From Candidatus Omnitrophota bacterium (GTDB taxonomy: Bacteria > Omnitrophota > Gorgyraeia > 2-01-FULL-45-10), in assembly GCA_026387175.1 (NCBI GenBank), contig JAPLME010000012.1:139429-203428 (forward strand): 64,000 nt of DNA, written 5' to 3'. The translations under genes were made by a program, and so were the position numbers. This document shows positions 19,072-41,215 of the stretch, one piece after another (within the stretch, counting starts at the first letter, position 1; every line of letters starts with the position of its first letter). Below the pieces are notes generated by a model, which had not been told where the DNA came from, ran no database searches, and saw only the letters and a program-made list of their open reading frames with translations.

Positions 19072-21195
19072 ATGGAAAGATTAAAGAAGATAGTTGCGAT
19101 TCTAATTATCATATGTTTCGGCTTAAATAATGTTTCTTATGCCTTTGAGATCAATGCATTTAAGCTGGCCGTGCCAAGCAGTTTTTCTAACTTTAAGGAC
19201 CAGGGATTCAAAGAAGCCGCGCAAATACAGATCGGTATGCGCATGGCTTTAAAAGACCTGGCATCACTTGACCTATCTTCTTTAAATGCACTAGGAAAGC
19301 GACAATTTGCTGAAAAAACTATTTTTACCCGAAAAATATCAGGCACCATGTATTTTGATGAGGCCCAAGCATGTAAGCCTAACGATCAAAAGCTTTATGC
19401 TGAATCAGGCAGCTATCTGGTTAAGGCACAAACAGCAAGCGGCATAACATATTACTGTTTTATCTCAAACAAGAGAAATGAGAAAGGTTATGATGTCTCG
19501 GTCGTGCCTGAAAAAGTGCTTGCCGAAGCGCTGCGAAATGATTATGCGGCGAAGGGCACTAAAAAGAAAAGCATGTTTAGGGGAGGCATATCTATAGTTA
19601 TTGCAGGCGCCCTGATGATAGGCGCCTATTCTTACTTCCATGGAGAATCAAATAAAGATGCGCTATCAGAAGTAATGAACGCTATAAATGAATGGCATAA
19701 ATACGAATACGCTGCTCCCGCTACTTACCAGGATAATCTGGTCAAAATAGCGCGCGAAAAAATAATAGAAAGATTGGTAAGTGCATTAGGTGAATATCGG
19801 CACAATAAGAGATTTGGCGATTATTTTGAGGACGACTCGGGGCTTCAGGAAGATAAGGAAACATTCGACTGCACTGTCCCCGAAATCGCGGCTAATGCTT
19901 TTGGCGAAATAGGTAAGCCAGCCGTTCCGAAACTCATAAAAGCACTAAATGAAAAGGTAGTGAAAAAATCAGATTTCAAGCGCCGTGAATATGTAGCAAA
20001 AGCATTAGGTATGACGGGTGATGCAGAAGTGGTAGAGCCGTTAATTCAAACCTTAAAACAATTGGCAGATAGCGGTTGTGGGGCCAGCGATTACAAGCAC
20101 AATAAGTCCGTATTTGACGGTTTAGTTAGAGTAGGTAAACCGGCCGTCCCGGCGCTTATAGAAGTTCTAAATGATAATACAAGGGATCCCAAAAAAACCT
20201 TAGAGACTCACCGCGGTCCGCTTTGCAGCTATGAATGCTTCAACCGTGCTAAATTTGCCGCCGAAGCGTTAGGTGTTATAGGCGATGGAAGAGCCGTAGA
20301 GCCTTTAATTCAAGCTCTAAAACGGTTATCAAACGTATACTGGGTGGATACGATTTCCGCAAATCATAACATAGTAATTGCTTTAGGAAGGTTAGGAGAT
20401 AAGCGGGCAATCGAGCCGCTCATGGTACACATGAAGAATAACGAATGGAACCCTAGCCGCGTTAAAATCGTAAAAAAGGCTATCGAAAGAATCGAAAAGA
20501 GGCAGGGGGGCACATCGGCTCCGGAGACGTCGTCTCAAGGGCTGGCAATGGCTGGTTCAGTGGTGTTAGGTTTAGTAGGGAAGCCTAGGGAAAAGTATGC
20601 AAAACCGGCAAACGAAGACATCCGTCTTATAGCATCGCGAATAAAAGAAGCGGGCATAGAAGTATTTATTCCTAAATCTCAATTCCTGGGTGACACGATA
20701 GCTAAATATAGGGGCGTTGTGGAATCTATAGGAGGCAAGCTTAGGGTATACCAGAATATCGAAGCCTTGCAAGGCATGGTGGAGTATCCCGCTAAGTCAA
20801 TAATAATGACCGCCGGTATTTCAGAAGGCGACATGGCATTGTTGCAAAGTTTAAAAGCAAGCATGGGGCAGCTTAGATTCATGAATTTTGCAAAGATGGA
20901 GGATTTAAGTACGATGTCAGTAGAAGAGGTTGATAATTATCAGGCTGATATTTTAAGCATTCTCCTTATAGCAAGAATAATTACGCCCGAAGATTTTCAA
21001 GATAAGGGCAGTCCCACCTATCGGATGCTTGCGCATCTATTGGAAGACTACATGCCTGAAGGCGTAGCAGTGGAAAATTATATACAGGATATAGTTACAA
21101 ATGCGGCTAGACTGGTTAAGACGATATTGAAGGCCTTACCAGTAGCAGCATACAAAGTTATGAGGCAATCTGTTGAAGTTCTCTGGGCAGCGTAA
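19072..21195 (+). CDS. Secreted/membrane HEAT-repeat (PBS-lyase-type) protein, 707 aa.
   Basis: N-terminal hydrophobic leader MERLKKIVAILIIICFGLNNVSYAFE. Repeated A.ALG.IGD..AVEPLIQALK motifs (19900-20420), typical of HEAT_2/PBS lyase repeats. Ends ...VLWAA. Confidence 0.7.
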   Translation: MERLKKIVAILIIICFGLNNVSYAFEINAFKLAVPSSFSNFKDQGFKEAAQIQIGMRMALKDLASLDLSSLNALGKRQFAEKTIFTRKISGTMYFDEAQACKPNDQKLYAESGSYLVKAQTASGITYYCFISNKRNEKGYDVSVVPEKVLAEALRNDYAAKGTKKKSMFRGGISIVIAGALMIGAYSYFHGESNKDALSEVMNAINEWHKYEYAAPATYQDNLVKIAREKIIERLVSALGEYRHNKRFGDYFEDDSGLQEDKETFDCTVPEIAANAFGEIGKPAVPKLIKALNEKVVKKSDFKRREYVAKALGMTGDAEVVEPLIQTLKQLADSGCGASDYKHNKSVFDGLVRVGKPAVPALIEVLNDNTRDPKKTLETHRGPLCSYECFNRAKFAAEALGVIGDGRAVEPLIQALKRLSNVYWVDTISANHNIVIALGRLGDKRAIEPLMVHMKNNEWNPSRVKIVKKAIERIEKRQGGTSAPETSSQGLAMAGSVVLGLVGKPREKYAKPANEDIRLIASRIKEAGIEVFIPKSQFLGDTIAKYRGVVESIGGKLRVYQNIEALQGMVEYPAKSIIMTAGISEGDMALLQSLKASMGQLRFMNFAKMEDLSTMSVEEVDNYQADILSILLIARIITPEDFQDKGSPTYRMLAHLLEDYMPEGVAVENYIQDIVTNAARLVKTILKALPVAAYKVMRQSVEVLWAA

Positions 21196-21210: not shown

Positions 21211-24200
21211 ATGAATACAATAAAGAACCACAGATTTTTTAAAATAATATGTTTTGCTCTAGTCATTACGTTTATCTCACTCGACATATCATATGCTTAT
21301 CCCGCTGAACACACAGCGCAGAATTCCACACTTGCTACCCCATCGGTATTTCAAACGCAGCCTATTACTACACATGCTGAAGCATTTCAAAGGTCGATGC
21401 TTGCGGACGGCAATCTTTTAGGTACAGTTTGCAGTATAGGTAAGTTTCTATTGGAAGACGGCATCAAACTTCGTCATCTTGCCAGAGTATTAGGCGAGGA
21501 ACTGGGAGACGCCGCTAAGTATGTAGACCTGTCGCGAGTAAGCGTGACGATTATGTATGATGGCAGACTGGTAAAACTCGATCCATCATTATCGGTAGAT
21601 ACCCCCCAGAGCGCTGTCGTATTAATTCCATATAATAAAGACGGGAAGAATGGGATAATCGAGATTGCGTTAAAGAACAATCCGTTTATCGATAAGTTAG
21701 CCGGATATCAGTGGGTTGTGTCGGATAAGTACGTTATTAAGGACCTGCCTGCCGATTATAAAGAGCCTGCATTACGGCCCGCACCAGAAGTTAAAACGGA
21801 AGCGCCTGTTCAACCGACTATAAGCGGGCCTATAGCGCGGGTCGAGGCTCCGACTACTGAAGCAGAAAAGTCCAAAGGTATTCTGACGAGGGTATTCAGT
21901 ATAAGGGCAATTACGACGTTTACATTAGCCATTATTCTGCTATTTACACAGACTGCGCTTGCCGCATCAGGTGACAGCACAAACCTCTTTTCTTCCAGCA
22001 ACATGTTTCGACTAGTCACAGGAATAGCGGTCCTCATAACCGTTTACCATTTTGCTAAGAAACGGCTTATGTTGGCAAAGGCGCAAGCTATAATAAATGA
22101 AATTGGCACATTGGTATCCATGCGGACGGAATTTTCGAAAGTTTATGTTGTTGATAATCCAGGCCAGGCGCTATTTTCTATTGGGACCAAAAGCGGAGAA
22201 ATGCCGGATATGTGGAATTCCGCACTATTTATCAACGCATCCATAATAAGACAGATGAGATTTATATGGCTTTGGGATAATCATAACGATTTGATTAGGC
22301 AGATAATGTCGGTAGATTTATATCAGAGAGCTGTGTCTGTAAATGAGAGTGAAAGCATAGATAGTAGTTTAAAAACACAAGGATATGCGGGCAGAGACGA
22401 TCCAAATGCAAAAAACGCCTACTTTTCCGAAATAAATAAAAGAGCATATTCAAAAGTGGGCCCAAGAGGAGTTGCGTTGGAGGCTTGGTTTTACCAAATT
22501 TATTCAGATCCTTTATATGCCATAAAGCATGCAAACAGGGATTGGATTGCAAGCGAAGTTGGAATATATTTAGCCAAAAGATATTTATGGATGAACAATA
22601 GGCAGATCAAAGAAGTTATTAAAGAGATATTTAAAATAAACGAATATTTTTTCAATCCGAAAAAATCAAAAAGCATAACGTTTAAATCTATCAATCCATT
22701 CGCCGCCATATTCGGCATTGCAGCATTAAACTCGACATTCTCTGTAGTAAAAGATTTCATCTTCGCGATAACCAAAGATAATGTGATAGACGCCGCGATG
22801 ATAGGCACGACGCTTGTGCTATCCATCTCTGTGTGGCGGTCAGATTTTCCTGTCAGCTGGCATTTGTTCTGGGCGAGATTCACCAAAATTAGTAACGCGC
22901 ATATAAATGCGTTAATTAAAATGGACAGGATGGCTGTCCCCGATCTTATAAAAAATGTATTAGGGTCTAAAAATCGCGGTACCCGTTGGCTTGCACTGTA
23001 CATCCTTGGCGAGATCGGTCCTGTAACGCCTGAAGTTATACCCGCCTTTGTAAAAGCATTAGGAGATAGTGATAGCGGCATTCGCGCTCTTGCCGCAGAC
23101 TTAATTATTGAAGCAGACGATATCCGTCTTTCATTCATGCGCGATTATCTAAAGATGGTTAGATACGCGAAAGATGAAGGCGATAGATATTATGAAGTTC
23201 TAAACCGGGAAGAGATAAACTATATTGTCGAATGCCTTAATAATAACATGGCTATAAAAGGCCAATATATCTCCCATGTTCTCAGCAATGGTTCGTTGGC
23301 GAAATTGATTATAAATATGAACGCGCCGGTAGTTCCTACTGCGAAAGGGACAGAGCAAAAGTTGGGTGCAGCCGAACTAAAATCCAAATGGTCTGAAAAA
23401 ATGAAGAGCGCGGACGAGATAGGGATAAAAGTTAACATAGGCCAGCTTGACGAAATAACTGCCACTAAAAAAGAAATTAACGGAATAGAATATTTTGAAT
23501 CGAATACACATAATATGAAAGTTAGCGGTGATAATCGGTGGCATAGAGAAGATGCTGTAGTATGTTCTTTCGATGCAGCAGAATTTAATTTCACAAAACT
23601 ATATGAAGATGTAAAACCGCGGCATTTAATAGACGAAATTAAATTGGAGAATGATGATTGGTATATCGGTATGGATTACATGCCGATATTGAAATATCAT
23701 ATGATCATCGCCCCGAAGCAGGCGCGCCAACAGCTGGCGACGCCGAAAGACATGGCCGATATGCAGCAGTTTTTGGCGCAAATGGGAGATGAAAAGGCCA
23801 CGCTTCTGCATAATAGCTTATTGGCCGGAGCGGGCATAAATAGCTTACATTATCATTTATTCTTTTATGATTTTCCGATTTTTAAAGAAGGATTCCCGAT
23901 TTATAGAGGGACAGAGAAATTTAACACAAAAACATTTACAGGAAAAAATTGCGCCCAAGAAGCAGGGGCATATTTAGAGGAGTTACAAGGCGCTAATCAG
24001 CCGTATAATTTGGTAATGAGATATGAAAAGATCATTATTATACCGCGCCCTCGCGATATAGAATTTGGATATGGAGCCGATGCGTTAGCAGGCGTTGTTT
24101 TCTATGGCAATGATCGATCGCTGGAAGCGGCAACCTGGTATAAGCCGGAACTGATGCAGGTTTCTAATGCCGCCCAGCTATTCGAAATAGTAGAATCCTC

Positions 24201-25068
24201 TCTGAACAGTAGAATGGCGCAGTTTATTAAGGCCGGGAATAACCTTATTAATTTGGCCAACACAAGAATGGCCTTGGAAGGCCGTCCCAGTATCGGTAAT
24301 CTCGATCAAAGAATGACTACGGCCGGAATAATACAGAAGGTTGAGTGGGCTATTGAAAGTTTGGATAAGGAAGGCATTGCGCCGGAAATTAAATCCGCCG
24401 TCGAATCACTGAAGAAAAATCTCACCCAATTCGAAGCAGATAGCACGGTCGGGTCACTGATCGTTCTAGCCAGAAGAGCAAAAAGAGAGGATCAGAAGCT
24501 TATAATAGGCCTTGAGACAGACTGGATACCCGGCATGAACATAAAGGACAGTTGTCAAAAACAGGCAATATTCGCGCTTATGAAAGAGATAGACTCTATA
24601 GGTGATGCGTTAAAGTCCATGAGACTCGATAACGTAGAGATCATCCGCGGGAGCGGCAAAGAGCTGGCCGACACATTGCTGGATAAGGCAGGGAAGACGC
24701 GCACCAATCTGCATAACGTAGTAGTCATGGCCTCCAGCGACACTATAAACTCCGAGAACTTCGCTAAATTAAGGAACGTTGACGATAACGACAGGCCGTT
24801 CTTAGCCGGTATTGACCCTAAAGATCTCATTAAGTTTTACTCCGAATATGGCGAAAGCACCAGCAATCAGCTCTATGTGAAACTGACGCAACTGCTTTAT
24901 ATGACGCTTGAACTTGCGTCGGGGAAAGAACCTATGTATACGCCAATAATCGATTCTTATGACAGGAAGATGAGAATTGTTATATTCATGCCAAGAGCAG
25001 AGGCAAAAGATTATGAGGCGCTTAAGAACACTTATGCAGCTGAAAAGACTGCATTAATGGCAGCCTAA
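21211..25068 (+). CDS. Large secreted multidomain protein (1285 aa). Its N-terminal leader domain and C-terminal 210-aa domain are homologous to those of the 3733-aa protein. It also has internal TM segments and HEAT repeats.
   Basis: RBS aaagga 8 nt upstream. N-terminus ...SLDISYAYPAEH... is ~55% identical to 7661-8000. C-terminus 24418-25068 is ~75% aa / ~80% nt identical to 18215-18862. HEAT-like VPDLIKNVLGS...IGPVTPEVIPAFVKALGDSDSGIRALAA (22925-23110). Confidence 0.8.
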   Translation: MNTIKNHRFFKIICFALVITFISLDISYAYPAEHTAQNSTLATPSVFQTQPITTHAEAFQRSMLADGNLLGTVCSIGKFLLEDGIKLRHLARVLGEELGDAAKYVDLSRVSVTIMYDGRLVKLDPSLSVDTPQSAVVLIPYNKDGKNGIIEIALKNNPFIDKLAGYQWVVSDKYVIKDLPADYKEPALRPAPEVKTEAPVQPTISGPIARVEAPTTEAEKSKGILTRVFSIRAITTFTLAIILLFTQTALAASGDSTNLFSSSNMFRLVTGIAVLITVYHFAKKRLMLAKAQAIINEIGTLVSMRTEFSKVYVVDNPGQALFSIGTKSGEMPDMWNSALFINASIIRQMRFIWLWDNHNDLIRQIMSVDLYQRAVSVNESESIDSSLKTQGYAGRDDPNAKNAYFSEINKRAYSKVGPRGVALEAWFYQIYSDPLYAIKHANRDWIASEVGIYLAKRYLWMNNRQIKEVIKEIFKINEYFFNPKKSKSITFKSINPFAAIFGIAALNSTFSVVKDFIFAITKDNVIDAAMIGTTLVLSISVWRSDFPVSWHLFWARFTKISNAHINALIKMDRMAVPDLIKNVLGSKNRGTRWLALYILGEIGPVTPEVIPAFVKALGDSDSGIRALAADLIIEADDIRLSFMRDYLKMVRYAKDEGDRYYEVLNREEINYIVECLNNNMAIKGQYISHVLSNGSLAKLIINMNAPVVPTAKGTEQKLGAAELKSKWSEKMKSADEIGIKVNIGQLDEITATKKEINGIEYFESNTHNMKVSGDNRWHREDAVVCSFDAAEFNFTKLYEDVKPRHLIDEIKLENDDWYIGMDYMPILKYHMIIAPKQARQQLATPKDMADMQQFLAQMGDEKATLLHNSLLAGAGINSLHYHLFFYDFPIFKEGFPIYRGTEKFNTKTFTGKNCAQEAGAYLEELQGANQPYNLVMRYEKIIIIPRPRDIEFGYGADALAGVVFYGNDRSLEAATWYKPELMQVSNAAQLFEIVESSLNSRMAQFIKAGNNLINLANTRMALEGRPSIGNLDQRMTTAGIIQKVEWAIESLDKEGIAPEIKSAVESLKKNLTQFEADSTVGSLIVLARRAKREDQKLIIGLETDWIPGMNIKDSCQKQAIFALMKEIDSIGDALKSMRLDNVEIIRGSGKELADTLLDKAGKTRTNLHNVVVMASSDTINSENFAKLRNVDDNDRPFLAGIDPKDLIKFYSEYGESTSNQLYVKLTQLLYMTLELASGKEPMYTPIIDSYDRKMRIVIFMPRAEAKDYEALKNTYAAEKTALMAA

Positions 25069-25098: not shown

Positions 25099-25127
25099 TT
25101 GACTTGTGTGTCTACATATGATATTAT
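25099..25127 (+). promoter_or_regulatory. Sigma70-like promoter for the 25201 giant gene.
   Basis: TTGACT (25099-25104), 17 nt spacer, then TATTAT (25122-25127), in an AT-rich intergenic region about 75 nt upstream of the start. Confidence 0.5.
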
Positions 25128-25200: not shown

Positions 25201-28200
25201 ATGAGATTCTGGAAGAAGACAATTTCGATTTTATTGATCCACGCATTTTTGTTATCGAGCCTGCCGGCGGGAGCATTGCAGCCGGCTTTCGCCGCTGCGC
25301 TCGATAATACCCCAACTGCAACTAAAGAAATAACCACCAATCCGGAAAATATAATAATATCCAGAGATTACGGCATTGTAAAATCCAAATTCACAGGCAA
25401 GAGCGATAAACTCATAATCCACATCCAGGACGCTCACTGTAACTATGAAGCCCAGTCCAATATAGCGAAAATTATAGAAAGTCTCGTTAAGAATGACTCC
25501 TTAAGTTTCGTATCCGTCGAAGGAGCCGACGGCCTTATAGACACCTCATGGTTTAAGGCATTCCCGGACGCCGAAGTGAGAAAGGAAGTCGCCAATTATT
25601 TCATGAAGAAGGGCGAGATCACCGGGCCAGAATTTCTTTCGATCACTACAGACTACCCGATAAAGCTTTTTGGCGCGGAGACGCGTGAATATTATATCCA
25701 GAACCTCAATGCTTTCACCGCTAGTTATCCTTCAAAAGAAGAGACTGAGAAATATCTAAACGGCATAAAAGCTGTCCTGAATAAGCTCCAGAGCTTTATC
25801 TACAATGACGATTTAAAGGCCATGGATGCCAAGTCACGGGAACATGAATCTAAGAAGATCCAATTCAATGAATATGTGCGTTTCCTGCAGTCTGAGGCCG
25901 AGAAGCATAAGATCAATTTAAGGCAGTATGAAAATCTTTTTAAACTGATCAATGTCCTTACATATGAGAAGAAGATAGATTTCAGCGTGACTGATAAAGA
26001 GAGAAGCGCCGTTATAGATGAATTTAGCAAAGTTCTGCCAAAAGACATTCTGACGGAGCTTGTCAATAAATCGATATCTTTCAAAGTCGGCAAGATAGCT
26101 TCATCGGAATATTATGAATATCTAAGAAACCTCGCCGCGAAGAACGGTATAGAGCTTTTGAAGAATTATCCCAACCTCAGCAACTACATAATATATAACT
26201 CAGTATATTCGAAGATCGACAATGAGAAACTCTTCAATGATATAAAGGAAGTCGAGAGCGTGATAAAGGAGAAATTATTCGAAAATGAAGACCAGAGGAC
26301 CCTCGAGAAACTCTCACGTCACATAGACACTCTCCTCGGCCTCATTAATATAAAACTTCTTAACGGAGAATTTGACTACTATAAGACACATAAGGAAGAG
26401 TTTACGCCTGAAAGCTTTACGGATTTCATGAAGGCTAAGTCTATACAATTCGGCTTGGCTTATGAGACGGAACCTCCAGCCGCCACGGTCGCGGACAGCA
26501 TAACGAAGCTTGAGGATTTCTACGCTATTGCCATAAAGCGCGATAAGGCGCTTGTGGATAACACTCTGGAAGGGATGAAGAAGGCCGACCAGAAGATAGC
26601 TGTCCTCGTTACAGGCGGATTCCATTCCGAAGGCATGGCTAAGCTTCTGGAGAAACAGGGCATCTCTTACGTGGTCGTTTGCCCGAACATAACAAAGGAT
26701 GTTCCCACTCCATATATTCAGATTCTTACCAATCAACGAACCTCTTTTGAAGATATACTGTCTACTCCGCAAGAGCCTGTGAAACAGAACATGCTTGCGC
26801 CTGCGCTCCTATCGTGGACGATGGGATTGAAGCCGGAGGAATTCAATAGGCTATTTAAAAACTTTGCCGGCCTGAAAGATAGGGTGGGGGATGTTCAAGA
26901 TGCGTGGGTAAAAGAACACTTATTGCTATGGCTTCACAAGGCACTTCAGTATATGGGCCAGCATCGTATGGCACATGATAAGAATGTGCTGAAAGATGCT
27001 TATAGGATGGCTATTGAGCGTACGGCTCAGGCTGCAGGGCGTAGTATTGCGGAAGCAAAGGATACGGCAGAAGCTATTATCTCTTCCGAGGTATTTATCG
27101 CGGCATTCGACGCGGCATATTCTACTCTGACTGTGCCTGCTGTAGTAGACATAGCGCATAAGGCTGCCGGTTCCGATACGTCTGAGGAAGGAGAGGATAT
27201 CCCTGAGGACGAGAATATTCGGGAAAAGACCCATGGCGCCACCCTTACTAATGCGGTAATTAACCGTTCCATGGAGGCCCCCGGGACGCAATTTCTGACG
27301 ATATTTGACGCCAATAATCCTTCAGCTATGTTAAATGCACAAAAGATCAATACCAAATTTGCCGACATAGTTTATGATCTCGAGTCCGTTATTAAGGGGC
27401 TCGAGGATTCCGATATCAAGAATATAGTGCGCACTATCGAAGAGATAGGGTTCAATACCACCGAATTTGAAAAAGCTTTCACTAAAGAAAACCTTTTGGG
27501 AGTCCTAAAGTCTGGATCGGGATTTAAAATAAATCTTGTCCAGCCCAAAGAGGAGATAACGGGCTTGAAAGTTCCGGGAATAGCTATGCTACGAATGGGC
27601 TCGAACTATGGGCATTACAGTGTGAATAATAATTCCATCTACTGCGCGTGGGGTGCGGTCAATGCGTTACTCGAAGAAAATACCGGGCTGTCACGGCGTC
27701 TGATAGTGGCGCTTGCTCTGCATGAGCTTACGGAATACGCGGTTCTAAAGAAGATGTTTCCCGGAAAATCTGTAGCCGATGACGTTAATAGCGCTGAACG
27801 GATAGTGCACGAAGCCGCTCAACGTCTTGAAAAACTCGTCGTCGGCCTTGGCAGTACGGACAAAGTAAGTAAACTTGATGATAAACTTGCCCAGATCACA
27901 ACCGAATATTATAATGAATTTTCCCAGAGGCTCCTTGATATAGTGGTTAAGAATGCTAAATTGAACTCTGCAGACAAAGGGTACCTGTGGAGTATGTGGA
28001 AACAGCATATCGTGCGTTATACTTCATCCGGCGGCAGGAAGCAACTAAGGATCATAACGGATCGAAAATTGCTTGATAGCCCGAAATTCGATCCGCTTGT
28101 AGATGGCAACTTCCTGCTTGCGTCGATGCTTTCTGACAAAGAGAGAGAGACGATCCTGGGCGCTTTCGAATATTCAGATCTTAAAAATGACGAAGCGAAC

Positions 28201-31200
28201 GCCGAAGCGGCAAGACAGGTGGTTGTAACCGCTAACTCAATGGACGGCGGCCTCGGTGAAAGTACTGGACGCATGAAGTTCCTTCAAATGATGGCTGTGG
28301 AAAACGGTCTGTCTCCGAAGGTAGAAATGGGTGCGAAAGGGACGGACTTTGGATATTTTATGACTTATAAAGGCCATAAAGTGTTTGTAAGTATAGCAGA
28401 GGCGAAGCTTCTACAGTTATATCTGGCCGCTACGGCAACAGATATTGCCGGTAATAAAAAATTCGGCGGCATAAATTTCCAGCCGCTTGTGAATAAGGAC
28501 TCAAAAAAATCGTATAAAAACCTATTAAATAAGGTTTGTATATTTGACAGTCTTGACCCTAATGTGGAGCTTAAGCGGAGCTACAAGGATCTGCTTGAGG
28601 CCGCCGGGGTGAAAGTGTTCGATGATATGCTCGAGCAGGCCGATCTTCCCTGGATAGACATGGCGACTCATAATATAACATTGGGCTTAGATGAAGAGAG
28701 GCGCCAACCGGGCGGACACGGCCAGTGGGGTTTTTACTTTCTGTACGACGCCTATTCCTCGAAACCTCCCGATGACGGGAAGACGCATGTCAGGGTTTTT
28801 TATAATGGAGATAACCTCAATAGCAGGATCAATGAAAATATTGCCGGGGCCATGGTGAGAAATAGGTGGCCGATCGTGAAACTGACGACTATAGCGACCG
28901 GAATAGATAAGAAGGGCGGCAAGGACGGCGTCAGAATAAAGAAGGTAGGAGACAAGACTGTCTACATACCTGACCAAATGGAAGAGGCGGAGGCCAAAAG
29001 AGCCGGCCAGCTCGAAGAGTTCTATGGTGCCGGACTGGAAGGTGGCCTCGGGGAAAATAATAAACAGCCTTTCAATACTAATATGTTCTACATGAACATT
29101 ACATTGATTCATAGCGTAATGCGGGAACTGATGGAACAGGGATTGATCTCGGAAGAAAAATTCTATGACATCATCTCGCCTATATTGATACCTAGGGAGA
29201 AAGAGGATCCGGTGACTAAAGCTAAAGGTGCGTATGCCCCTATTGATGGAGCGATAGGCGTCGCTATGCACCATTTTAATGAATTTTTCCTGTTGAATAC
29301 CGATCCAAAGGTAAAAGCAGTGCTTGATAAATACGGAATCAAAAGGATGCTCTATTTTGTTAATGTTCCGCGGACGGAGTTCTTTACACCGGTAAAAAAA
29401 TGCTATGATATGTGGCTTCAGGCCTATAGCGACTATTATACTAAGATCGATACCGGAAGCTGGTCGCTGAAAGATTCCGAAGGAGCTGTAACGCCACCTG
29501 GCTTTGTTCTTATAGAACCACCGTTTGAGGAAAAAGATACGAAGAGTTATTGGAATGAAATGCAGAATGTTATCGATTCGTTCGGGCATGCCAGCACCAT
29601 ACAATTGAAATCATTAACCATCGTAGGTAAAATAATTGCGAAAGACGCCAAATTCATCGGCACCGTAGTTATAGAAAACAAAAATTCTCAGATTGTAGAT
29701 CTAAATCAACTGAGGGCTACTAATCCAGAGCTTGAAGCGCTCTATAGTGGGGACAAAGCTATCCTTAAAGATGTGCGAATCGTTATAAATAAGGATCTTT
29801 CGGTGACCGTAGAACCCATTAGCAAAGATGCCCGAATCACTGTAAATGAAGATTTCTCAGTGACCATCGAACCCAGCAGCACGAATGGGGACGTCGGCGC
29901 GATACGCGGTAACGGCGAAGGTGTCTCGGCGGAAGAACATGGCACGAGGACTCTCGGAAATGCTAATTATGACAGAGTCAAGGCCGCCCAGGAATATAGC
30001 CTGAACGGAATAATTGCGCGAAGATTTGATTCCGATAATGGAAACGGCAGCGTTGTTTACACCCTTTCTACCGAAAGAGATTATCGTCCATTCATGGGGG
30101 ATAAGAAAGTAGCAGGAATAAATATCGCTGATTTTAATAAAGACGGCGAACAGGCCAAACTTGAGCTGATCAAGAGGAGCCTCGTCGGAGAAAATATCAC
30201 ATTTTATATTATCAAAGGCTTAAAGGATAAGCTATTACAAAGCGGCATAGTTCCGGATCTGATGTTCCATCCGGGCGTGACGAGACGCGCCATATATATG
30301 GATGAAGGCGATTTCAGGTATCTGCTCTCTTTGGAAAACGGCGTCGATATCATAGCAGAGGCTGTGAAGCACGAAAAGGCTCACATGAAAGATTCTTCAG
30401 CAACAGAAGCAGCGGTTGAGAAAATAGCCCCGATCTATAACGTGAGGTTGGCGTTTACTTTAAGGGATGTGGCCCAGAATAGGGCTAAGATGGAGATTGA
30501 AAACAGACAATTCGAAGTCGGTAAGGAGTATGAACCGGGCAAAGTTTATCAGAAGCCTCTTCCAAAGTTCGCGAAGTTTGGGACGAGCGGCGTCAGGTGG
30601 CTGACATGGGATATATTTGAACAATTCAGACAGGCCGCGGAAAAAGTTAAAGCAGGCAAGGCTGATATCACCGCGCAAGACAGAGAGTTTGCAAGGAAGT
30701 ACGATGTCCTTGTGTCGAACGGTTACACGCAGGCGGACTTTACTATGCCTAACATCGGACTCGTAACGAAATCGATAGCTCTTTACAATTTAAAGAAAGC
30801 TCAAGGATTGTATGAGACCGTTTCCGGGACGACCGATGATTTCAGGAAGAAACTCGAGGAGAAGGGCTTGCTCCTATTCTACGATAACCGCCCGGGGAAT
30901 TTTGAATATGTAAAAGAGATGGCGCGGATACTTGTCTCATACGGTATAAAGGTAACATTAAATAAATTCGAAAATAAATTTACTCCGGTACTCATAGCAT
31001 CCATGAGCTTACTCATAAAGAGAGAAGGGTATGCGGGCGGATTATATTTAACAGCCAGCCATAACGGCGATGAGTGGAACGGTATTAAATTTAACGCGGA
31101 AGACGGCGCGCCGTCAATGCCTAAAGTTACTGACGCTATAGGCGCGATACTTGCGGAGGAGATCGGCCGCGAAAAGCCGGGATACGATAGAGCCAAAAAA

Positions 31201-34200
31201 GATGTGGAAGGCCTTATGGCCGACGGCAAAATAGCGGCCATGGACGCCACGCGATATTATGTTGATGCCGTCCTGAACTATATGGGGCCGGAGAGAGTAG
31301 AGGCCGTAAAACAGGCGATCAGGGAGAAGAGAGTTACATTCATATACAGCGCGTTTTATGGAAGTTCCGGCCTTGCCATGAAGATGCTCTGTGAGCGTCT
31401 CGGAATGTCGGAAGAGACTATAGAAAAAAATATAATTGAGATCGAAAAACCAGGTGAGGGCGTTTACGTCGCAAGTTACGAACCTACGCTGGAGAAGCTC
31501 GAAGTTCTTAAAGCGAAAGTTGATAAAGTGGTAGCTGATATAAAGGATCAGGGTGGAACTCCGATAGTAATAGGAGGTTCAGCCGATAATGACGCTGACA
31601 GATTCCAGGTTAACGAGAATGGAGAAGAGTATATACCCGGGAGGCTTACGGCTATACTTGGTCACTACCTTGTTACTTCGAGAAACTTGCGCGGTAAAGA
31701 TGTGCTGTGGGGCAGAAGCTTCGTATCCAGTCACTACCCGGACGAAGTAGCGATGCTTTTCGGGCAGAAGACGCAAGTAGAGCCCACAGGATTCAAATTT
31801 TCCCCGTCCGTTTTGGCTAAAGGCGGCGTAATATTTTACGAAGAAAGCTATGGCCAGTCATTCTGGGACTGGACACTCGATAAGGACGGTGTCTTACCGG
31901 CAATATTAGCGCTTGAACTTGTAGCGACTACAGGCAAGAGCCTCGCGGAATATGAAAAAGGTATTAAGAATGAACTGAAGGCGGCAGGATTACTGTCAGA
32001 ATTTCATTTCGAACGGGATGACAAGCGTTTACCCGGAGATGTTAAAGACAATGCCGTAAAATTATTTAAAGAATTCTTTAACGGTATTGTGGTAAACCAG
32101 ACCACCTTCGCCGGAAAGAAGATAACCGAAAAATATGATTCTGCTAAATTCGGCGGGATGAAATTTGTTATGGAGGACGGCAGTTGGATCGCTCTGCGCT
32201 CATCCGGGACTGAGCCGGTCATACGTGTCTATATGGAAGCTAAGGATGCTGCGGCAGTCAACGTATTGCGTCAGGCGGCCCTTGTATTGATGGCGCTTAA
32301 TGCAGAGAGATCCAAAACAGAGACTGCAGGTGCTGTAGAGGGCGGAAAGAAACTGCACACGCCTCTCGACGCAAAAGGCGATAAGGCGCTCGCGGCCGGC
32401 TTCCTGAAAGCAGGATATAATAAGGAAGGCAAGACCGCCAACATCGGGTATGGTGTCGAAGAAGGGGCGGTAATCGATGGATCGTTCGCCACAGAGGGCG
32501 AAGGCATCCAGGGTTATTATGTCGATAAAGGAAAGCAATTTCTAGCTACCATTAAGGATATGAGAGATTTCTTTGCCAGACGCGCGCAAATATTAGGTAA
32601 GAATATAAAATATGTAATAAAACCGGGTATTGGCGGCCAGCACACGCCGTTCCAGGGTATCGCTGAAGTCTTTCAGGTGATCGATACGGAAACCGGAATG
32701 GTCGTAGGCGAATACGAGCTGGGTAAGAATTACGAAGAAGCGCTTGGTAAAGTGTTGGCAGGGCTTGGTGCCGACTGGGACCAGATTGCGGTGATCCCGA
32801 GCTCGAAATCAGGCTCCACCGATGAGACGATGATGATATTCAGCGAAATCTTCTACACGCTCCTTAAGAAGATAGCCGAGAAGCAGGGCCTTAACGGCGA
32901 ACAGTTCTCCGACACCTTCTTTAATACATTGCATGATATAAATTTCGAGAATGGCGTCGAACGGAAGGGCGCGGATCTCTTTAAGGGATTCAGTTTGACG
33001 CTCCTTACGAATAATCTGAAAGCCGTTCCGGGATTCAAGACAGACTATGAACAGGTGAGAAATGTGTTCCGTGTTGTATTGGGAAACATGTTCTTTGAGA
33101 CTACCGATAGGCCCTCACAGAGCCGTCTCGCGGCCTTTATTAAAAACTCGGGCCTCGATAAGGAGCTGGGTGAAAAATACGCGCCCGGATTCGGCGCGAT
33201 GTTCGACAATGTCGGCGGACGCTGGACAGCGGACCTTCATATGATGACCTTCCTGGCATATCATAATATGACCGATGAAGAGATAATGGCGTATTGGCAG
33301 AGCCGGTATAACGGCATAAATGAAGTCCGTAACGGTACGCATCTGGCTAATAGTCTCGCGAAGAAGATACTCGACGAAGGGATCACCGATATAGCTCTGG
33401 TCGTTCCGAACGAGCTATTCTGGTTCGGTAAGTCCATAGAGCAGAACTTTAACGAATCTATCTGGCAGGAAGGTTTCGCTAATCTGGTCGCCGTTAAAGC
33501 GAGTAATTGGGAATACCAAAAAGCTAACTATTCCGGTAAATCGAAACGGCTTGTCGTGGATATTACCGGAGCAGAACTCGATATGAAAGGCTGCGATCTC
33601 TTTAAAGTGCCCGCGCTTTATAGCGGTACAGCGGCAGCCAAGACAAAAGAAAATTTGGCTATAGAGCTCGGAAGGCTGTCTACAACATTCTATGGCACCA
33701 CATACACCGTCGGGACGAGGCTCATAGATAGAGCGTTGGCGCGCGAAGGATATACGTGGGCCGATGTCGATATCAATAATCTGAATAATCCGGCAACGAG
33801 GATCATACAGCGCAATCTCTATTTGCGGCAGCCGTATGTAGAACTCGGCAAAGGGCTATTAGAACAGAAGATGGGTCTTTTTCAAGAGGCAGGCCCTAAA
33901 GCTATACAGGCAGAAGTTGCTAACATACAGGATGACGCCAAGCGCGGCAAACTTATCTCTAATATTGAAGAGTTAGGGCTTCCTGATAATGTAACTGATA
34001 TGCGGACACTGGCCAAGACTATATTTAAGGCTGTCAAATTTGCCGAGAAGGAGAATCGTAAGTTCGTGCCGTTCATATATCTGGAAGGCGAGAAGTTCTA
34101 TGAATTACGGGAGGCTCTTGTAAAACTCGGCATCGAATGGGTTATGCAGGGTACCGGCGACCAGCATATCAGTTATCAGCAGGTCCTGGCGCAGCCGCAA

Positions 34201-35151
34201 AAGTATCTGCCGTTCATAATTTCATTCGTTCCTGAGAAGATGCTCCCGGGCAGGCCCGCGATCGGATTCGCCAAAGGCTACCTGAATAATGTAAGCTCGA
34301 ATATGGTGAGGGACCTTTTCGCGGAGGCATCCTATAGGGCATTGACAGAGCCGAGAACGGACGAGGCAGGACAAAGCGTCCAGGGCGCGATGGGCATCTT
34401 CCTTCGCTTACAGGATTCGCAAGAGAACAGGACTATGCTTAAAGAGTCGTTCAAAGAGGCGATCACAGGCCCGCGCGTAGTAGAAATGACGATAACACCT
34501 AGGGCAGCAGCGAATAAGCCGGAGGCCGCACGTGAGGAGTATATTTACGATACCTATGTTAAAAATGACGCGGCAGCGCTTCACCAGACTCTCGTCGGAC
34601 TTGGGGTCAATACTGAGTTGACGAAAAACAAACAGGTGCTGATACTCTACGATACGGCGATAGATCCGACGGTGGATACAACTCATGTAGCGCACGCGGG
34701 TGAGGTTGCCGTAAAAAAATACATGAATGAGGCGATAATAGAAGTTCGCGGCACAGGTAAGGCTCTTTACGAAGCGGCCAAAGCGCAAGCTGGAAATTTG
34801 AAAGGGCCATACGCGATTGTTACGATAGCCGGGGACGTGACTTTGAGGGAGATAGGCACGGAAGGCTTGAAGGACCTCGGCAAGGTAATCAATGTGCAGA
34901 ATCCTGATAACAGGTATATCCCGGTCATTGGATTGTATGATCTTGCGCTCAGGATCGCATATGATCTCGGTGATGAAAAGATACTCGAATGTTTAAACAG
35001 GATCGCTACAAAGGATCCTAATTTTACGCCGTTTACCTTAGAAGATCTAAGGAAAGGTATGATAACAATACTGCCGAAGATCAGGCCTGTCGATATGGCC
35101 GAGGCTGTTGAAGCCTATAAGGCTGCGCAGGCAGCTCTTAAGTCGCTGTAA
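25201..35151 (+). CDS. Giant secreted multidomain protein (3316 aa) embedding a UTP-glucose-1-P uridylyltransferase-like domain, an alpha-D-phosphohexomutase (PGM/PMM) domain and a phosphoglucose isomerase domain.
   Basis: RBS ggagga. Signal-like N-terminus MRFWKKTISILLIHAFLLSSLPAGALQPAFAAA. TANSMDGGLGESTGRMKF (28221-28280) UGPase-like. FGTSGVRW (30578), TASHNGDEWNGIKF (31051-31095) and RSSGTEPVIRVY (32197-32235) are PGM signatures. KPGIGGQ (32622) and SSKSGSTDET (32800-32830) are PGI signatures. Confidence 0.85.
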   Translation: MRFWKKTISILLIHAFLLSSLPAGALQPAFAAALDNTPTATKEITTNPENIIISRDYGIVKSKFTGKSDKLIIHIQDAHCNYEAQSNIAKIIESLVKNDSLSFVSVEGADGLIDTSWFKAFPDAEVRKEVANYFMKKGEITGPEFLSITTDYPIKLFGAETREYYIQNLNAFTASYPSKEETEKYLNGIKAVLNKLQSFIYNDDLKAMDAKSREHESKKIQFNEYVRFLQSEAEKHKINLRQYENLFKLINVLTYEKKIDFSVTDKERSAVIDEFSKVLPKDILTELVNKSISFKVGKIASSEYYEYLRNLAAKNGIELLKNYPNLSNYIIYNSVYSKIDNEKLFNDIKEVESVIKEKLFENEDQRTLEKLSRHIDTLLGLINIKLLNGEFDYYKTHKEEFTPESFTDFMKAKSIQFGLAYETEPPAATVADSITKLEDFYAIAIKRDKALVDNTLEGMKKADQKIAVLVTGGFHSEGMAKLLEKQGISYVVVCPNITKDVPTPYIQILTNQRTSFEDILSTPQEPVKQNMLAPALLSWTMGLKPEEFNRLFKNFAGLKDRVGDVQDAWVKEHLLLWLHKALQYMGQHRMAHDKNVLKDAYRMAIERTAQAAGRSIAEAKDTAEAIISSEVFIAAFDAAYSTLTVPAVVDIAHKAAGSDTSEEGEDIPEDENIREKTHGATLTNAVINRSMEAPGTQFLTIFDANNPSAMLNAQKINTKFADIVYDLESVIKGLEDSDIKNIVRTIEEIGFNTTEFEKAFTKENLLGVLKSGSGFKINLVQPKEEITGLKVPGIAMLRMGSNYGHYSVNNNSIYCAWGAVNALLEENTGLSRRLIVALALHELTEYAVLKKMFPGKSVADDVNSAERIVHEAAQRLEKLVVGLGSTDKVSKLDDKLAQITTEYYNEFSQRLLDIVVKNAKLNSADKGYLWSMWKQHIVRYTSSGGRKQLRIITDRKLLDSPKFDPLVDGNFLLASMLSDKERETILGAFEYSDLKNDEANAEAARQVVVTANSMDGGLGESTGRMKFLQMMAVENGLSPKVEMGAKGTDFGYFMTYKGHKVFVSIAEAKLLQLYLAATATDIAGNKKFGGINFQPLVNKDSKKSYKNLLNKVCIFDSLDPNVELKRSYKDLLEAAGVKVFDDMLEQADLPWIDMATHNITLGLDEERRQPGGHGQWGFYFLYDAYSSKPPDDGKTHVRVFYNGDNLNSRINENIAGAMVRNRWPIVKLTTIATGIDKKGGKDGVRIKKVGDKTVYIPDQMEEAEAKRAGQLEEFYGAGLEGGLGENNKQPFNTNMFYMNITLIHSVMRELMEQGLISEEKFYDIISPILIPREKEDPVTKAKGAYAPIDGAIGVAMHHFNEFFLLNTDPKVKAVLDKYGIKRMLYFVNVPRTEFFTPVKKCYDMWLQAYSDYYTKIDTGSWSLKDSEGAVTPPGFVLIEPPFEEKDTKSYWNEMQNVIDSFGHASTIQLKSLTIVGKIIAKDAKFIGTVVIENKNSQIVDLNQLRATNPELEALYSGDKAILKDVRIVINKDLSVTVEPISKDARITVNEDFSVTIEPSSTNGDVGAIRGNGEGVSAEEHGTRTLGNANYDRVKAAQEYSLNGIIARRFDSDNGNGSVVYTLSTERDYRPFMGDKKVAGINIADFNKDGEQAKLELIKRSLVGENITFYIIKGLKDKLLQSGIVPDLMFHPGVTRRAIYMDEGDFRYLLSLENGVDIIAEAVKHEKAHMKDSSATEAAVEKIAPIYNVRLAFTLRDVAQNRAKMEIENRQFEVGKEYEPGKVYQKPLPKFAKFGTSGVRWLTWDIFEQFRQAAEKVKAGKADITAQDREFARKYDVLVSNGYTQADFTMPNIGLVTKSIALYNLKKAQGLYETVSGTTDDFRKKLEEKGLLLFYDNRPGNFEYVKEMARILVSYGIKVTLNKFENKFTPVLIASMSLLIKREGYAGGLYLTASHNGDEWNGIKFNAEDGAPSMPKVTDAIGAILAEEIGREKPGYDRAKKDVEGLMADGKIAAMDATRYYVDAVLNYMGPERVEAVKQAIREKRVTFIYSAFYGSSGLAMKMLCERLGMSEETIEKNIIEIEKPGEGVYVASYEPTLEKLEVLKAKVDKVVADIKDQGGTPIVIGGSADNDADRFQVNENGEEYIPGRLTAILGHYLVTSRNLRGKDVLWGRSFVSSHYPDEVAMLFGQKTQVEPTGFKFSPSVLAKGGVIFYEESYGQSFWDWTLDKDGVLPAILALELVATTGKSLAEYEKGIKNELKAAGLLSEFHFERDDKRLPGDVKDNAVKLFKEFFNGIVVNQTTFAGKKITEKYDSAKFGGMKFVMEDGSWIALRSSGTEPVIRVYMEAKDAAAVNVLRQAALVLMALNAERSKTETAGAVEGGKKLHTPLDAKGDKALAAGFLKAGYNKEGKTANIGYGVEEGAVIDGSFATEGEGIQGYYVDKGKQFLATIKDMRDFFARRAQILGKNIKYVIKPGIGGQHTPFQGIAEVFQVIDTETGMVVGEYELGKNYEEALGKVLAGLGADWDQIAVIPSSKSGSTDETMMIFSEIFYTLLKKIAEKQGLNGEQFSDTFFNTLHDINFENGVERKGADLFKGFSLTLLTNNLKAVPGFKTDYEQVRNVFRVVLGNMFFETTDRPSQSRLAAFIKNSGLDKELGEKYAPGFGAMFDNVGGRWTADLHMMTFLAYHNMTDEEIMAYWQSRYNGINEVRNGTHLANSLAKKILDEGITDIALVVPNELFWFGKSIEQNFNESIWQEGFANLVAVKASNWEYQKANYSGKSKRLVVDITGAELDMKGCDLFKVPALYSGTAAAKTKENLAIELGRLSTTFYGTTYTVGTRLIDRALAREGYTWADVDINNLNNPATRIIQRNLYLRQPYVELGKGLLEQKMGLFQEAGPKAIQAEVANIQDDAKRGKLISNIEELGLPDNVTDMRTLAKTIFKAVKFAEKENRKFVPFIYLEGEKFYELREALVKLGIEWVMQGTGDQHISYQQVLAQPQKYLPFIISFVPEKMLPGRPAIGFAKGYLNNVSSNMVRDLFAEASYRALTEPRTDEAGQSVQGAMGIFLRLQDSQENRTMLKESFKEAITGPRVVEMTITPRAAANKPEAAREEYIYDTYVKNDAAALHQTLVGLGVNTELTKNKQVLILYDTAIDPTVDTTHVAHAGEVAVKKYMNEAIIEVRGTGKALYEAAKAQAGNLKGPYAIVTIAGDVTLREIGTEGLKDLGKVINVQNPDNRYIPVIGLYDLALRIAYDLGDEKILECLNRIATKDPNFTPFTLEDLRKGMITILPKIRPVDMAEAVEAYKAAQAALKSL

Positions 35152-35503: not shown

Positions 35504-35560
35504 GGCCGATGTCAGAGACATCGGCACTTAGCTATCACTATGGCAGAATAAACTAGGAGA
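35504..35560 (+). promoter_or_regulatory. Conserved palindromic leader element, copy 1.
   Basis: GCCGATGTC-AGAG-ACATCGGC perfect dyad (35505-35525), then ACTTAGC...ATGGCAGAATAAACTAGGAG. Near-identical copies at 47588 and 59813. Confidence 0.6.
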
Positions 35561-40534: not shown

Positions 40535-41206
40535 ATGCGAATATTAGTGGTGGAAGACGAGAAGAAGATAGCCGACTTTATAAGACGCGGCCTTAAAGAA
40601 GAAGGTTATGCCGTAGATACCGCTTATGACGGCGAAGAAGGCCTGTTTCTAGCCAAGACCAATGATTATGACTTGATCCTCCTTGACCTGATGCTCCCCA
40701 AGCTCGACGGGCTCACTCTCTGTAAAAAACTTAAAGAGGCCAAGGTAAAATCCCGCGTCATAATGCTTACCGCGAAGGAGACCGTAAAGGATAAAGTCCT
40801 CGGGCTCGATTCGGGAGCCGACGATTATCTCACCAAGCCTTTCGCTTTCGAGGAGCTCCTGGCCAGGATCCGCGCGATCCTCAGGAAGAAAGAGACCCAG
40901 GCCCCTACGAAGCTTAAGATCGCCGATCTCGAGCTTGATCTCCTCACCCATAAGGTGATAAGAGGATCTAAAGAGATCGAACTTACCGCCAAAGAATATT
41001 CCCTGCTTGAATACCTGATGCGCAATGAAGGGTCCATCGTCACGCGTACGATGATATCCGAGCACGTCTGGGATATAGATTTCGATACTTTCACAAACGT
41101 TATAGATGTTTACATTAATTATCTCCGCAACAAGATCGATTCAGGATTTAAGAAGAAGCTTATCCATACGGTCCGCGGCAGGGGATATATATTAAAAGAA
41201 GAATAG
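40535..41206 (+). CDS. OmpR/PhoB-family response regulator.
   Basis: MRILVVEDE...DLILLDLMLP.LDG...LTAK (REC) and a winged-helix C-terminus VIRGSKEIELTAKEYSLLEYL...TVRGRGY. Confidence 0.9.
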   Translation: MRILVVEDEKKIADFIRRGLKEEGYAVDTAYDGEEGLFLAKTNDYDLILLDLMLPKLDGLTLCKKLKEAKVKSRVIMLTAKETVKDKVLGLDSGADDYLTKPFAFEELLARIRAILRKKETQAPTKLKIADLELDLLTHKVIRGSKEIELTAKEYSLLEYLMRNEGSIVTRTMISEHVWDIDFDTFTNVIDVYINYLRNKIDSGFKKKLIHTVRGRGYILKEE

Positions 41207-41215
41207 AGCCGACGC

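Follow-up and report, generated by a model that had tools for sequence, protein, structure and literature searches.

The window examined here, a 64,000-nucleotide stretch of a contig from a Candidatus Omnitrophota bacterium, encodes a modular protein of 3,316 aa. It belongs to a very large family of modular giants, centred on Omnitrophota, whose 'bookends' are conserved. The bookends are a predicted Sec-type signal and a module of predicted Tiki/TraB/ChaN/EreA fold at the start, and a C-terminal module of ~250 aa at the end; the sugar-phosphate enzyme cassettes between them appear to be exchangeable. The cargo of this protein reads as a nucleotidyltransferase of the UGPase (UDP-glucose pyrophosphorylase)/USP type, an HExxH module, a mutase of the phosphoglucomutase (PGM) type and a divergent double-SIS isomerase resembling phosphoglucose isomerase (PGI). 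All three enzyme modules are predicted to be catalytically active and would interconvert fructose-6-P (F6P), glucose-6-P (G6P), glucose-1-P (G1P) and UDP-hexose by proximity on one chain. The conserved signal would move this chain across the cytoplasmic membrane, or tether it there, and the chain would then work on sugar phosphates and nucleotide sugars outside its own cytoplasm – in the periplasm, on the cell surface, or else at a prey cell or inside it. Taken as a whole, an intact modular giant with active, exchangeable sugar-phosphate cassettes that is exported or membrane-tethered is the best explanation for the gene, with a probability of roughly one half.

Gene and module layout

An earlier reading of the DNA, made from the sequence only, had described one 3316-aa protein with motifs of a nucleotidyltransferase, a mutase and an isomerase, in that order, at 28200–34200. 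All of these motifs are present in a single ORF: translation of window positions 25201..35151 (+ strand) gives one uninterrupted 9.9-kb frame. GGLGESTG is found at aa 1016, FGTSGVRW at 1793, TASHNGDEWNGIKF (which begins TASHNG) at 1951 and SGTEPVIRVY at 2335; in the PGI-like part, PGIGGQ is at aa 2475 and SSKSGSTDET at aa 2534. They put the enzyme region at ~nt 28213–34350, close to the range first proposed. The sequence-only reading saw the enzyme cassettes and missed the N-module, the HExxH module and the C-terminal module, which are among the non-enzyme parts that make up more than half of the chain. The gene is divided as follows:

25201..35151, + strand: whole gene, modular protein of 3,316 aa, stop codon included (ORF list and translation)
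25201..25293, + strand: aa 1–31, Sec-type signal peptide or signal anchor (MRFWKK, hydrophobic core, A-F-A), as read from the sequence
25315..27069, + strand: aa 39–623, family-defining N-module, an alpha/beta core of predicted Tiki/TraB/ChaN/EreA fold with a helical insert of ~300 aa; motifs HIQDAHCNxEAQ, VEGA and GGFH invariant
27181..28200, + strand: aa 661–1000, linker region with a possible degenerate HExxH-type element, HELTE, at aa 841–845
28213..29880, + strand: aa ~1005–1560, UGPase/USP-type nucleotidyltransferase (Pfam UDPGP and motifs)
29887..30555, + strand: aa 1563–1785, HExxH module, putatively zincin-like (GAIRxxGGxLTxxEHGTR ... FHPG.xRxxhYxDE ... HEKAH(x7)E(x3)E)
30556..32310, + strand: aa ~1786–2370, alpha-D-phosphohexomutase (PGM) (Pfam PGM_PMM and PDB 2fuv)
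32323..34350, + strand: aa ~2375–3050, divergent double-SIS, PGI-like module (AlphaFold2 model, Foldseek, collinear motif blocks)
34405..35148, + strand: aa 3069–3316, conserved C-terminal module ending ...ILPKIRPVDMAEAVEAYKAAQAALKSL (homologue comparison)

The integrity of the gene, the identities and order of its modules, the conservation of their motifs and the size and architecture of the family are shown by the data. An identical protein is already present in NCBI/Logan on two contigs, the longest of 251 kb, from a Candidatus Omnitrophica metagenome-assembled genome (MAG); its NCBI name is UTP--glucose-1-phosphate uridylyltransferase. Four homologues with 41–51% identity align over the N-module, the linker, the UGPase-like module and the HExxH module in the same order, and one of these four alignments extends into the mutase.

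The mutase and nucleotidyltransferase modules

PGM was the only enzyme detected when the whole protein was scanned against Pfam and NCBIfam. Domains I, III and IV of PGM_PMM were above the Pfam cut-off (E 4e-15, 3e-11 and 3e-9), domain II was present below it (18.1 vs 29.3 bits), and Salmonella PGM (PDB 2fuv) was matched with E 2.7e-26. All four active-site loops of the alpha-D-phosphohexomutases are present and pair with those of 2fuv – the phosphoserine loop (TASHNG/ITPSHNP, Ser1953), the metal loop (DNDADR/DPDYDR, aa 2129–2134), the sugar loop (EESYG/EESAG) and the phosphate loop (RSSGTEP/RPSGTED). The form TASHNG had earlier been taken as a reason to doubt activity. That doubt loses its ground here, since the phosphoserine loop retains its Ser and His and is variable at this position among homologues (TASHNP, TASHNG, TASHNE, TASHLK). 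Scores against NCBIfam equivalogs were far under the cut-offs (pgm 95 vs 778, Arch_GlmM 108 vs 439); specificity for glucose is likely, at a level short of an equivalog assignment.

The UDPGP family (PF01704) surfaced only when the segment was scanned by itself (aa ~1143–1444, E 2.3e-8, 33.6 bits vs a cut-off of 22). It was not reported in the whole-protein Pfam scan, and the module has no NCBIfam match. An alignment to Leishmania UDP-glucose pyrophosphorylase (E 0.011) spans PGGHG, NGDNL, DKKGG, FNTN, PVK and the C-terminal beta-helix; PGGHGQ, NGDNL, DKKGG, FNTN and FTPVKK of the module are aligned to their Leishmania counterparts, including the Lys of PVK. The nucleotide-binding loop GGLGESTG fits GGxGxxxG and was assigned by motif alone, and its Glu presumably recalls the USP-type loop GGLGERLG.

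The family signatures of all three enzymes had been called unambiguous. This is so for PGM, which is strong; the UGPase-like signature is significant only when scanned alone, and no profile detects a PGI. Profile searches thus gave PGM_PMM and UDPGP above the cut-off and left the PGI-like part with no Pfam, NCBIfam or PDB sequence match. At the level of residues, catalytic and ligand-binding motifs are intact in all three modules, the His motif of the PGI-like module being displaced. The claim that modules for the consecutive steps F6P–G6P–G1P–UDP-hexose stand on one polypeptide behind a signal-peptide-like N-terminus was borne out. We infer catalytic activity, the identity of the substrates and the direction of flux.

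The PGI-like module

The searches without a match in this region were of the segment, by phmmer against PDB and with a 12-sequence profile against PDB; hhalign against E. coli PGI was also not significant. The relation to PGI appears in a predicted structure and in the order of motifs. An AlphaFold2 model of the module built on 12 homologues has a mean pLDDT of 74.5 and a pTM of 0.79. All of its 19 best Foldseek matches in PDB are to PGIs (E 2e-4 to 6e-3, probability 1.0, TM-score 0.35–0.50), and other double-SIS proteins follow them in the list. Five motif pairs occur in the canonical PGI order: GIGGQ/GIGGS, SKSGSTDET/SKTFTTQET, GGRWT/GGRYS, NES/(M)ES and VELGK/VELGK. With a 66-sequence HMM the blocks match residues 141–230, 240–271 and 497–529 of E. 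coli PGI, each being sub-threshold alone, and collinear blocks are also found by hhalign against Omnitrophota domains that Pfam calls PGI. R2674, E2752, K2884, H2989 and the phosphate-binding SKSGSTDET are invariant in 66 of 66 PGI-like modules.

Some findings on this module tell against the explanation as a whole. The hhalign comparison with five Omnitrophota PF00342 domains was not significant (E 0.012). The canonical His position (rabbit His388, ~30 residues after the Glu) is occupied by W2770, a Trp in 65 of 66 modules, according to a manual reading of motif spacing. Homology to PGI also rests on a model of medium confidence (pLDDT 74.5, active-site loops <50) and on alignments that are individually insignificant. 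A motif strikingly like that of His388, GTGDQHISYQQ (H2989, 66/66), is found ~235 residues downstream in an extra C-terminal subdomain. In canonical PGI the catalytic His is contributed by the other subunit of the dimer, and it is an attractive idea that H2989 may be a built-in (in-cis) substitute for it. Because there is no profile match and the canonical position lacks its His, the module is called PGI-like and not a member of the PGI family: on sequence and model it is probably an isomerase, and not a demonstrated PF00342 member.

A profile search with the module found 65 relatives (P0121–P0185). Most are free-standing 'hypothetical proteins' of 650–790 aa, mostly without a signal peptide, from Omnitrophota and a few Elusimicrobiota MAGs. 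In other relatives the module is fused – to PGM alone (P0130), to transaldolase (P0171), or to 6PGD and a 6PGL-type domain – and these partners act on G6P/F6P or on closely related pentose-phosphate intermediates. Neither P0130 nor P0171 has a signal-like N-terminus. One free-standing gene (locus L005, 8001–10091) lies amid housekeeping genes and adjoins a GH77 gene. As far as the searched literature shows, this widespread ~700-aa family is unrecognised and unannotated. Canonical PGI was detected in just 67 of 176 complete Omnitrophota genomes (bioRxiv 10.64898/2026.06.07.730766). In most Omnitrophota genomes KO-based annotation misses PGI, and this family is a candidate for the overlooked enzyme; the family may explain the scarcity of PGI annotations, which would change metabolic reconstructions of the phylum.

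N-terminal signal, N-module and linker

The protein begins MRFWKK / TISILLIHAFLLSSL / ...PAFA-AA, a K/R-rich stretch followed by a hydrophobic core of ~18 residues and A-F-A. This has all the parts of a Sec signal (a basic n-region, an h-region of 10–20 residues and a small-x-small motif), with K/R ahead of the hydrophobic core and acidic or neutral residues behind it. In a Kyte-Doolittle scan the N-terminus was the sole strongly hydrophobic segment of membrane-spanning type; aa 631–649 were also flagged, barely over the threshold (1.64 vs 1.6). The tripartite pattern, ending ...SNIAFA, was found again in the homologues inspected and likewise on free-standing N-module proteins. The secretion-type N-terminus described in the sequence-only reading is present as a signal-like pattern that recurs in homologues.

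Behind the signal, the N-module is common to all listed homologues at ~50–75% identity. In its predicted model (pLDDT 86) the core is alpha/beta and carries a helical insert of ~300 aa; the alpha/beta fold is shared with the Tiki/TraB/ChaN/EreA superfamily. The invariant HIQDAH, VEGA and GGFH stand in the order expected for the His/Glu/GxxH pattern of that superfamily, by sequence motif alone, and sequence similarity of the N-module to the Tiki/TraB/PrgY/GumN/ChaN/erythromycin-esterase superfamily was undetectable. TraB, ChaN, HopBA1 and RRSP are structural relatives of the N-module; these are extracytoplasmic proteins or secreted effectors. The N-module also occurs in free-standing proteins of ~535–550 aa (P0196, P0244, P0246, P0249, P0256 and P0263), each with its own signal peptide of differing sequence, no enzyme cargo and no C-module.

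The linker is kept at full length in a handful of close homologues. It has a weak similarity to the HExxH module (hhalign E 0.024), and the region at 760–860, with HELTE, may be a degenerate copy of it.

HExxH module

The HExxH module is kept in ~30 homologues, with 0–2 copies per protein, between cassettes. HEKAH is near-invariant and is followed by Glu at +8 and +12. No Pfam match was found in a scan of 20 members and no PDB match in a profile search, a further homologue search with the alignment of the module gave no hits, and the motif makes the module a putative zincin-like protease.

C-terminal module and adjacent giants

About two thirds of the homologues have the C-terminal module, always last, and the PGI-like module is always directly before it. 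There was no significant Pfam or PDB match, the nearest being a phosphate acetyltransferase chain (PDB 7t85, E 0.076). Five long genes follow one another on the + strand, and the studied gene closes the series:

3–7502, + strand: O1, >2,499 aa, PPDK_N, runs off the start of the window
7661–18862, + strand: O2, 3,733 aa, HD, B12-binding/radical-SAM and UDPGP
19072–21195, + strand: O3, HEAT repeats
21211–25068, + strand: O4, HEAT repeats and ATP_transf
25201–35151, + strand: O5, the protein studied here

Signal-like N-termini are found on O2 to O5. An HMM of the C-terminal module matches O4 (E 6.7e-6) and O2 (E 4.9e-4), and a short HMM of the tail only was too weak for the tails of the neighbouring giants (E 0.5–4). 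A similar tail ends all five (...[LM]P..(P).D...Y.A...AL.[AS][AL]-COOH), and the same kind of tail ends giants at other loci (L002 673–8529, L004 4942–9873); in 145 of 158 giant relatives the last two residues are [SA][LVAI]. Such a common tail may be a sorting or assembly tag.

By BLAST among the giants of the window, O5 has no similarity to O1–O4 at E 1e-3. The neighbours share parts with each other: a segment of ~195 aa with an HELLH motif is 80.5% identical between O1 (aa 427–620) and O2 (aa 2935–3129), and O2 and O4 share the N-terminal ~200 aa (34% identity) and the last 216 aa (70%). Sharing of this kind points to modules having recently been exchanged or duplicated among adjacent giants. 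O2, behind its signal-like N-terminus, also has a UDPGP domain that scores better than that of O5 (E 1.2e-19).

Around and within the studied gene, a promoter-like site at 25099–25127 is a consensus match only, and the promoter scan was at background level. A palindrome with a perfect 9-bp stem (GCCGATGTC-TCT-GACATCGGC) is found at 35505–35525, in the 413-bp gap 3' of the gene, and may be a terminator or a protein-binding site; the terminator scan was likewise at background level, and this hairpin too is a consensus match only. An antisense ORF of 305 aa with a TTG start (28687–29604, – strand) lies inside the UGPase-like coding region and probably arises as a side effect of the long sense frame.

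Size of the family and published giants

The first homologue search gave 433 homologues, and nearly all of the 120 listed are 1.8–5.6 thousand aa (kaa) long and mostly from Omnitrophota. Their cargo varies in combination – PGM, UDPGP, PGI, cupin-PGI, PFK, CofD/YvcK-type proteins and PGK, and further transaldolase, NTP-transferase, ROK, aldolase, FBPase, epimerase and others. When the N-module was used for an exhaustive profile search, 9,329 clusters (50% identity) were found, of which 5,762 had E <= 1e-30. The N-module is always at residues ~40–540 of proteins ~520 to >5,500 aa long (mostly 2–5.5 kaa), the free-standing N-module proteins being the shortest. In the homologue architectures it always comes first, as the C-terminal module always comes last.

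The fusion had been described as highly unusual. That is fair for bacteria in general and not for Omnitrophota, in which ~9,300 clusters share the N-module and PGI and PGM domains in giant proteins are already reported in preprints. 'Archaeovorins' of at least 30 kaa carry glucose-phosphate isomerase, PGM/PMM, FBPase, aldolase, TPI and PPDK domains, for which an extracellular location is predicted (West-Roberts et al. 2023, bioRxiv 10.1101/2023.11.21.568195), and Omnitrophota proteins of at least 10 kaa include 'multi-enzyme metabolic clusters', with signal peptides on ~48% (bioRxiv 10.64898/2026.06.07.730766). In these preprints a signal peptide, with or without transmembrane (TM) helices, is predicted for about half of the long Omnitrophota proteins, multi-enzyme ones included. 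The N-module, the C-terminal module, the HExxH module and the PGI-like family go unmentioned in both. The general phenomenon is thus known, and within it the studied protein falls in a smaller architectural class that is uncharacterised; its detailed architecture, like the PGI-like family, is undescribed as far as the searched literature shows.

Neighbouring beta-1,2-glucan-type locus

The beta-glucan-type locus that had been noted at 36–58 kb is real and occupies window positions 36242–58589 on the + strand:

starts 36242, 43451 and 53814, + strand: three PF10091 (GH144-like) proteins (domain scan)
39193, + strand: solute-binding protein
40535–42682, + strand: two-component system, OmpR-type regulator and histidine kinase
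42767, + strand: CBM_11 protein
45739, + strand: TPR protein
47652–53804, + strand: 2,050-aa GH94-type protein (PDB 8rf9)
55916 and 56925, + strand: two ABC permeases
58580–59809: ROK kinase, just beyond the locus

The C-terminal half of the 2,050-aa protein matches the GH94 domain of the cyclic beta-1,2-glucan synthase Cgs/NdvB (PDB 8rf9, E 4e-107), and the N-terminal half has about a dozen hydrophobic TM-like segments. No GT84/Cgs glycosyltransferase part was detected in this protein, only the GH94 part being matched; it could represent a variant form of membrane-bound glucan synthase or phosphorylase.

A functional link between the giant protein and this locus, through G1P from phosphorolysis or UDP-glucose for synthesis, is plausible and circumstantial. 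At two homologous loci there are no GH94 or GH144 neighbours, and sugar importers, GH2 and CBM_11 are found instead. The proposal that UDP-glucose is supplied as a donor for glucan synthesis is weakened further, as the GH94 protein matches no UDP-glucose-using glycosyltransferase domain of cyclic glucan synthase. A GH94 phosphorylase would yield G1P, which is a substrate of PGM.

Location and alternative explanations

Location is the part of the explanation held least firmly, and export or tethering is predicted at about even odds. It is favoured because the tripartite signal is family-wide, there is no second strongly hydrophobic segment, the relatives of the N-module are extracytoplasmic proteins or effectors, and cysteines are fewer. 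PGI-like modules in giants have 0.35 cysteines per module vs 1.58 in signal-less free-standing ones (Mann-Whitney p = 2.5e-4, an optimistic value for related sequences), which is a weak hint of export. On the other side, all three enzymes depend on substrates (UTP or PPi, sugar phosphates, glucose-1,6-bisphosphate) that ordinarily occur in a cytoplasm alone; signal peptides are absent from most free-standing PGI-like relatives and from a free-standing PGM plus PGI-like protein; and one such signal-less relative lies among housekeeping genes. These observations add to those already raised against the PGI-like module.

The main rival is a metabolon at the membrane's cytoplasmic face, in which the N-terminal stretch is an inner-membrane anchor or non-functional and the cassettes work in the cell's own cytoplasm. 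They would serve upper glycolysis or gluconeogenesis and the supply of UDP-glucose, perhaps feeding or draining the beta-1,2-glucan system. We consider this unlikely, though it is the best placed of the alternatives. It accounts for the cytoplasmic substrates and for the free-standing PGI-like and PGM plus PGI-like relatives without signals. It also agrees with the detection of canonical PGI in only 67/176 complete genomes, which would leave room for the divergent modules as housekeeping enzymes, and with the adjacent GH94 domain of cyclic-glucan-synthase type, GH144-like proteins, sugar ABC importer and ROK kinase. However, the charge distribution and the conserved A-x-A predict an N-in/C-out topology or cleavage and not a C-in anchor, and the N-module also occurs alone, with its own varied signal peptides. 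A housekeeping role could already be covered by the free-standing PGI-like genes, and GH94/GH144 neighbours were not found at either of the two homologous loci checked.

A second alternative overlaps the preferred explanation and does not exclude it. The protein could be a self-processing polyprotein or effector – an exported chain cut at the module junctions by the HExxH module, the Tiki/TraB-like N-module or both, which would free separate enzymes, possibly into prey, in the manner of MARTX toxins. The HExxH motif and its invariant downstream Glu residues lie directly upstream of the boundary of the PGM cassette, which is the point at which a free-standing PGM plus PGI-like protein starts, and the 0–2 HExxH modules of each protein stand between cassettes. 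Proteolytic processing of Omnitrophota giants was suggested by West-Roberts et al., though via C39 and S8 domains. The HExxH module, however, has no detectable relation to any peptidase family, many family members have several cassettes and no such module, and no conserved cleavage motif was identified. There is also no translocation domain, and a search for RTX repeats found none. On balance, processing of this kind is improbable.

An extended form of the preferred explanation is offered with similar reserve and is best treated as speculative. The signal, the Tiki/TraB-like module and the C-module with its tail (...LPxxxPxD...AL.SL-COOH) would form a new export or sorting route that places active carbon-enzyme cassettes at the cell surface or inside prey; HExxH would perhaps do the processing, the cargo would turn host sugar phosphates and nucleotide sugars into importable forms, and the ~700-aa family would be the 'missing' PGI.

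Very unlikely is a non-catalytic role, in which the modules are pseudoenzymes that bind carbohydrate or phosphate, or are structural, in an extracellular coat or adhesin. It would reconcile predicted export with cytoplasmic substrates, the PGI-like module is highly divergent with no His at the canonical position, and coat or adhesin roles have been put forward in the literature for Omnitrophota giants. It was rejected on three counts: all four PGM loops are kept, including the phosphoserine and the metal-binding DxDxDR; the UGPase motifs are all present; and the candidate catalytic residues are invariant in 66/66 PGI-like modules, signal-less free-standing ones included, which is the conservation pattern expected of enzymes.

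The last alternative, an assembly chimera or missed stops or frameshifts that joined separate genes, was considered since the source is a MAG and giant ORFs are sometimes assembly errors, and it was rejected as having next to no chance of being right, given the open 9.9-kb frame, the identical protein on two contigs, and dozens of independently assembled homologues with the same bookends, several with the same cassette order.

If the chain is both active and exported, the question is what sugar-phosphate metabolism is for outside the bacterial cytoplasm; this would bear on host exploitation by ultra-small predatory or parasitic Omnitrophota and on the sorting of proteins of several thousand residues. 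A member of 3.3 kaa is far more tractable than giants of 30–150 kaa, and its module boundaries are clear because free-standing homologues exist. If it is cytoplasmic instead, it would be a natural membrane-tethered, exchangeable metabolon.

Comparison with known systems

The nearest known systems are the Omnitrophota giants of the two preprints. They are from the same phylum and share a repertoire of PGM/PMM, glucose-phosphate isomerase, FBPase, aldolase, PPDK, radical SAM, HEAT and HD, with cytoplasmic-type enzymes behind predicted signal peptides and several long genes clustered. Size limits of >=30 kaa or >=10 kaa define those giants, most of which have many TM helices, whereas the studied protein has 3.3 kaa and a single N-terminal hydrophobic segment. 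It is not an Archaeovorin: it has 3,316 aa vs at least 30,000 and one clearly hydrophobic segment vs numerous TM regions. None of the Archaeovorin-type glycosyl transferase/hydrolase, methyltransferase, peptidase or NUDIX Pfam domains is found in it, and it shares only the less common glycolytic-type ones.

The N-module differs from the Tiki/TraB/PrgY/GumN/ChaN/erythromycin-esterase superfamily in its helical insert of ~300 aa, and we know of no member of that superfamily that heads multi-enzyme chains. MARTX and polymorphic toxins and giant T1SS adhesins are likewise large modular chains that are exported (here, predicted to be), with conserved trafficking ends and exchangeable cargo. MARTX toxins self-process and release effector domains, including RRSP. 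Unlike these systems, the studied protein has no RTX repeats that could be found and no recognised cysteine protease or toxin domains, its cargo consists of central-metabolism enzymes, and there is no linked secretion system in the 64-kb window.

Natural fusions of transaldolase and PGI exist, and these bifunctional proteins likewise have consecutive or adjacent sugar-phosphate enzymes on one chain; they are two-domain proteins of ~1 kaa, whereas here three enzymes are set between export-type modules and modules of unknown function. The eukaryotic AROM, CAD and fatty acid synthase proteins also fuse consecutive steps, an arrangement presumed to help channelling and to keep stoichiometry fixed. 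They are cytosolic, ancient and fixed in composition, whereas the giants described here differ from one another in their cassettes, which stand behind an export-type signal.

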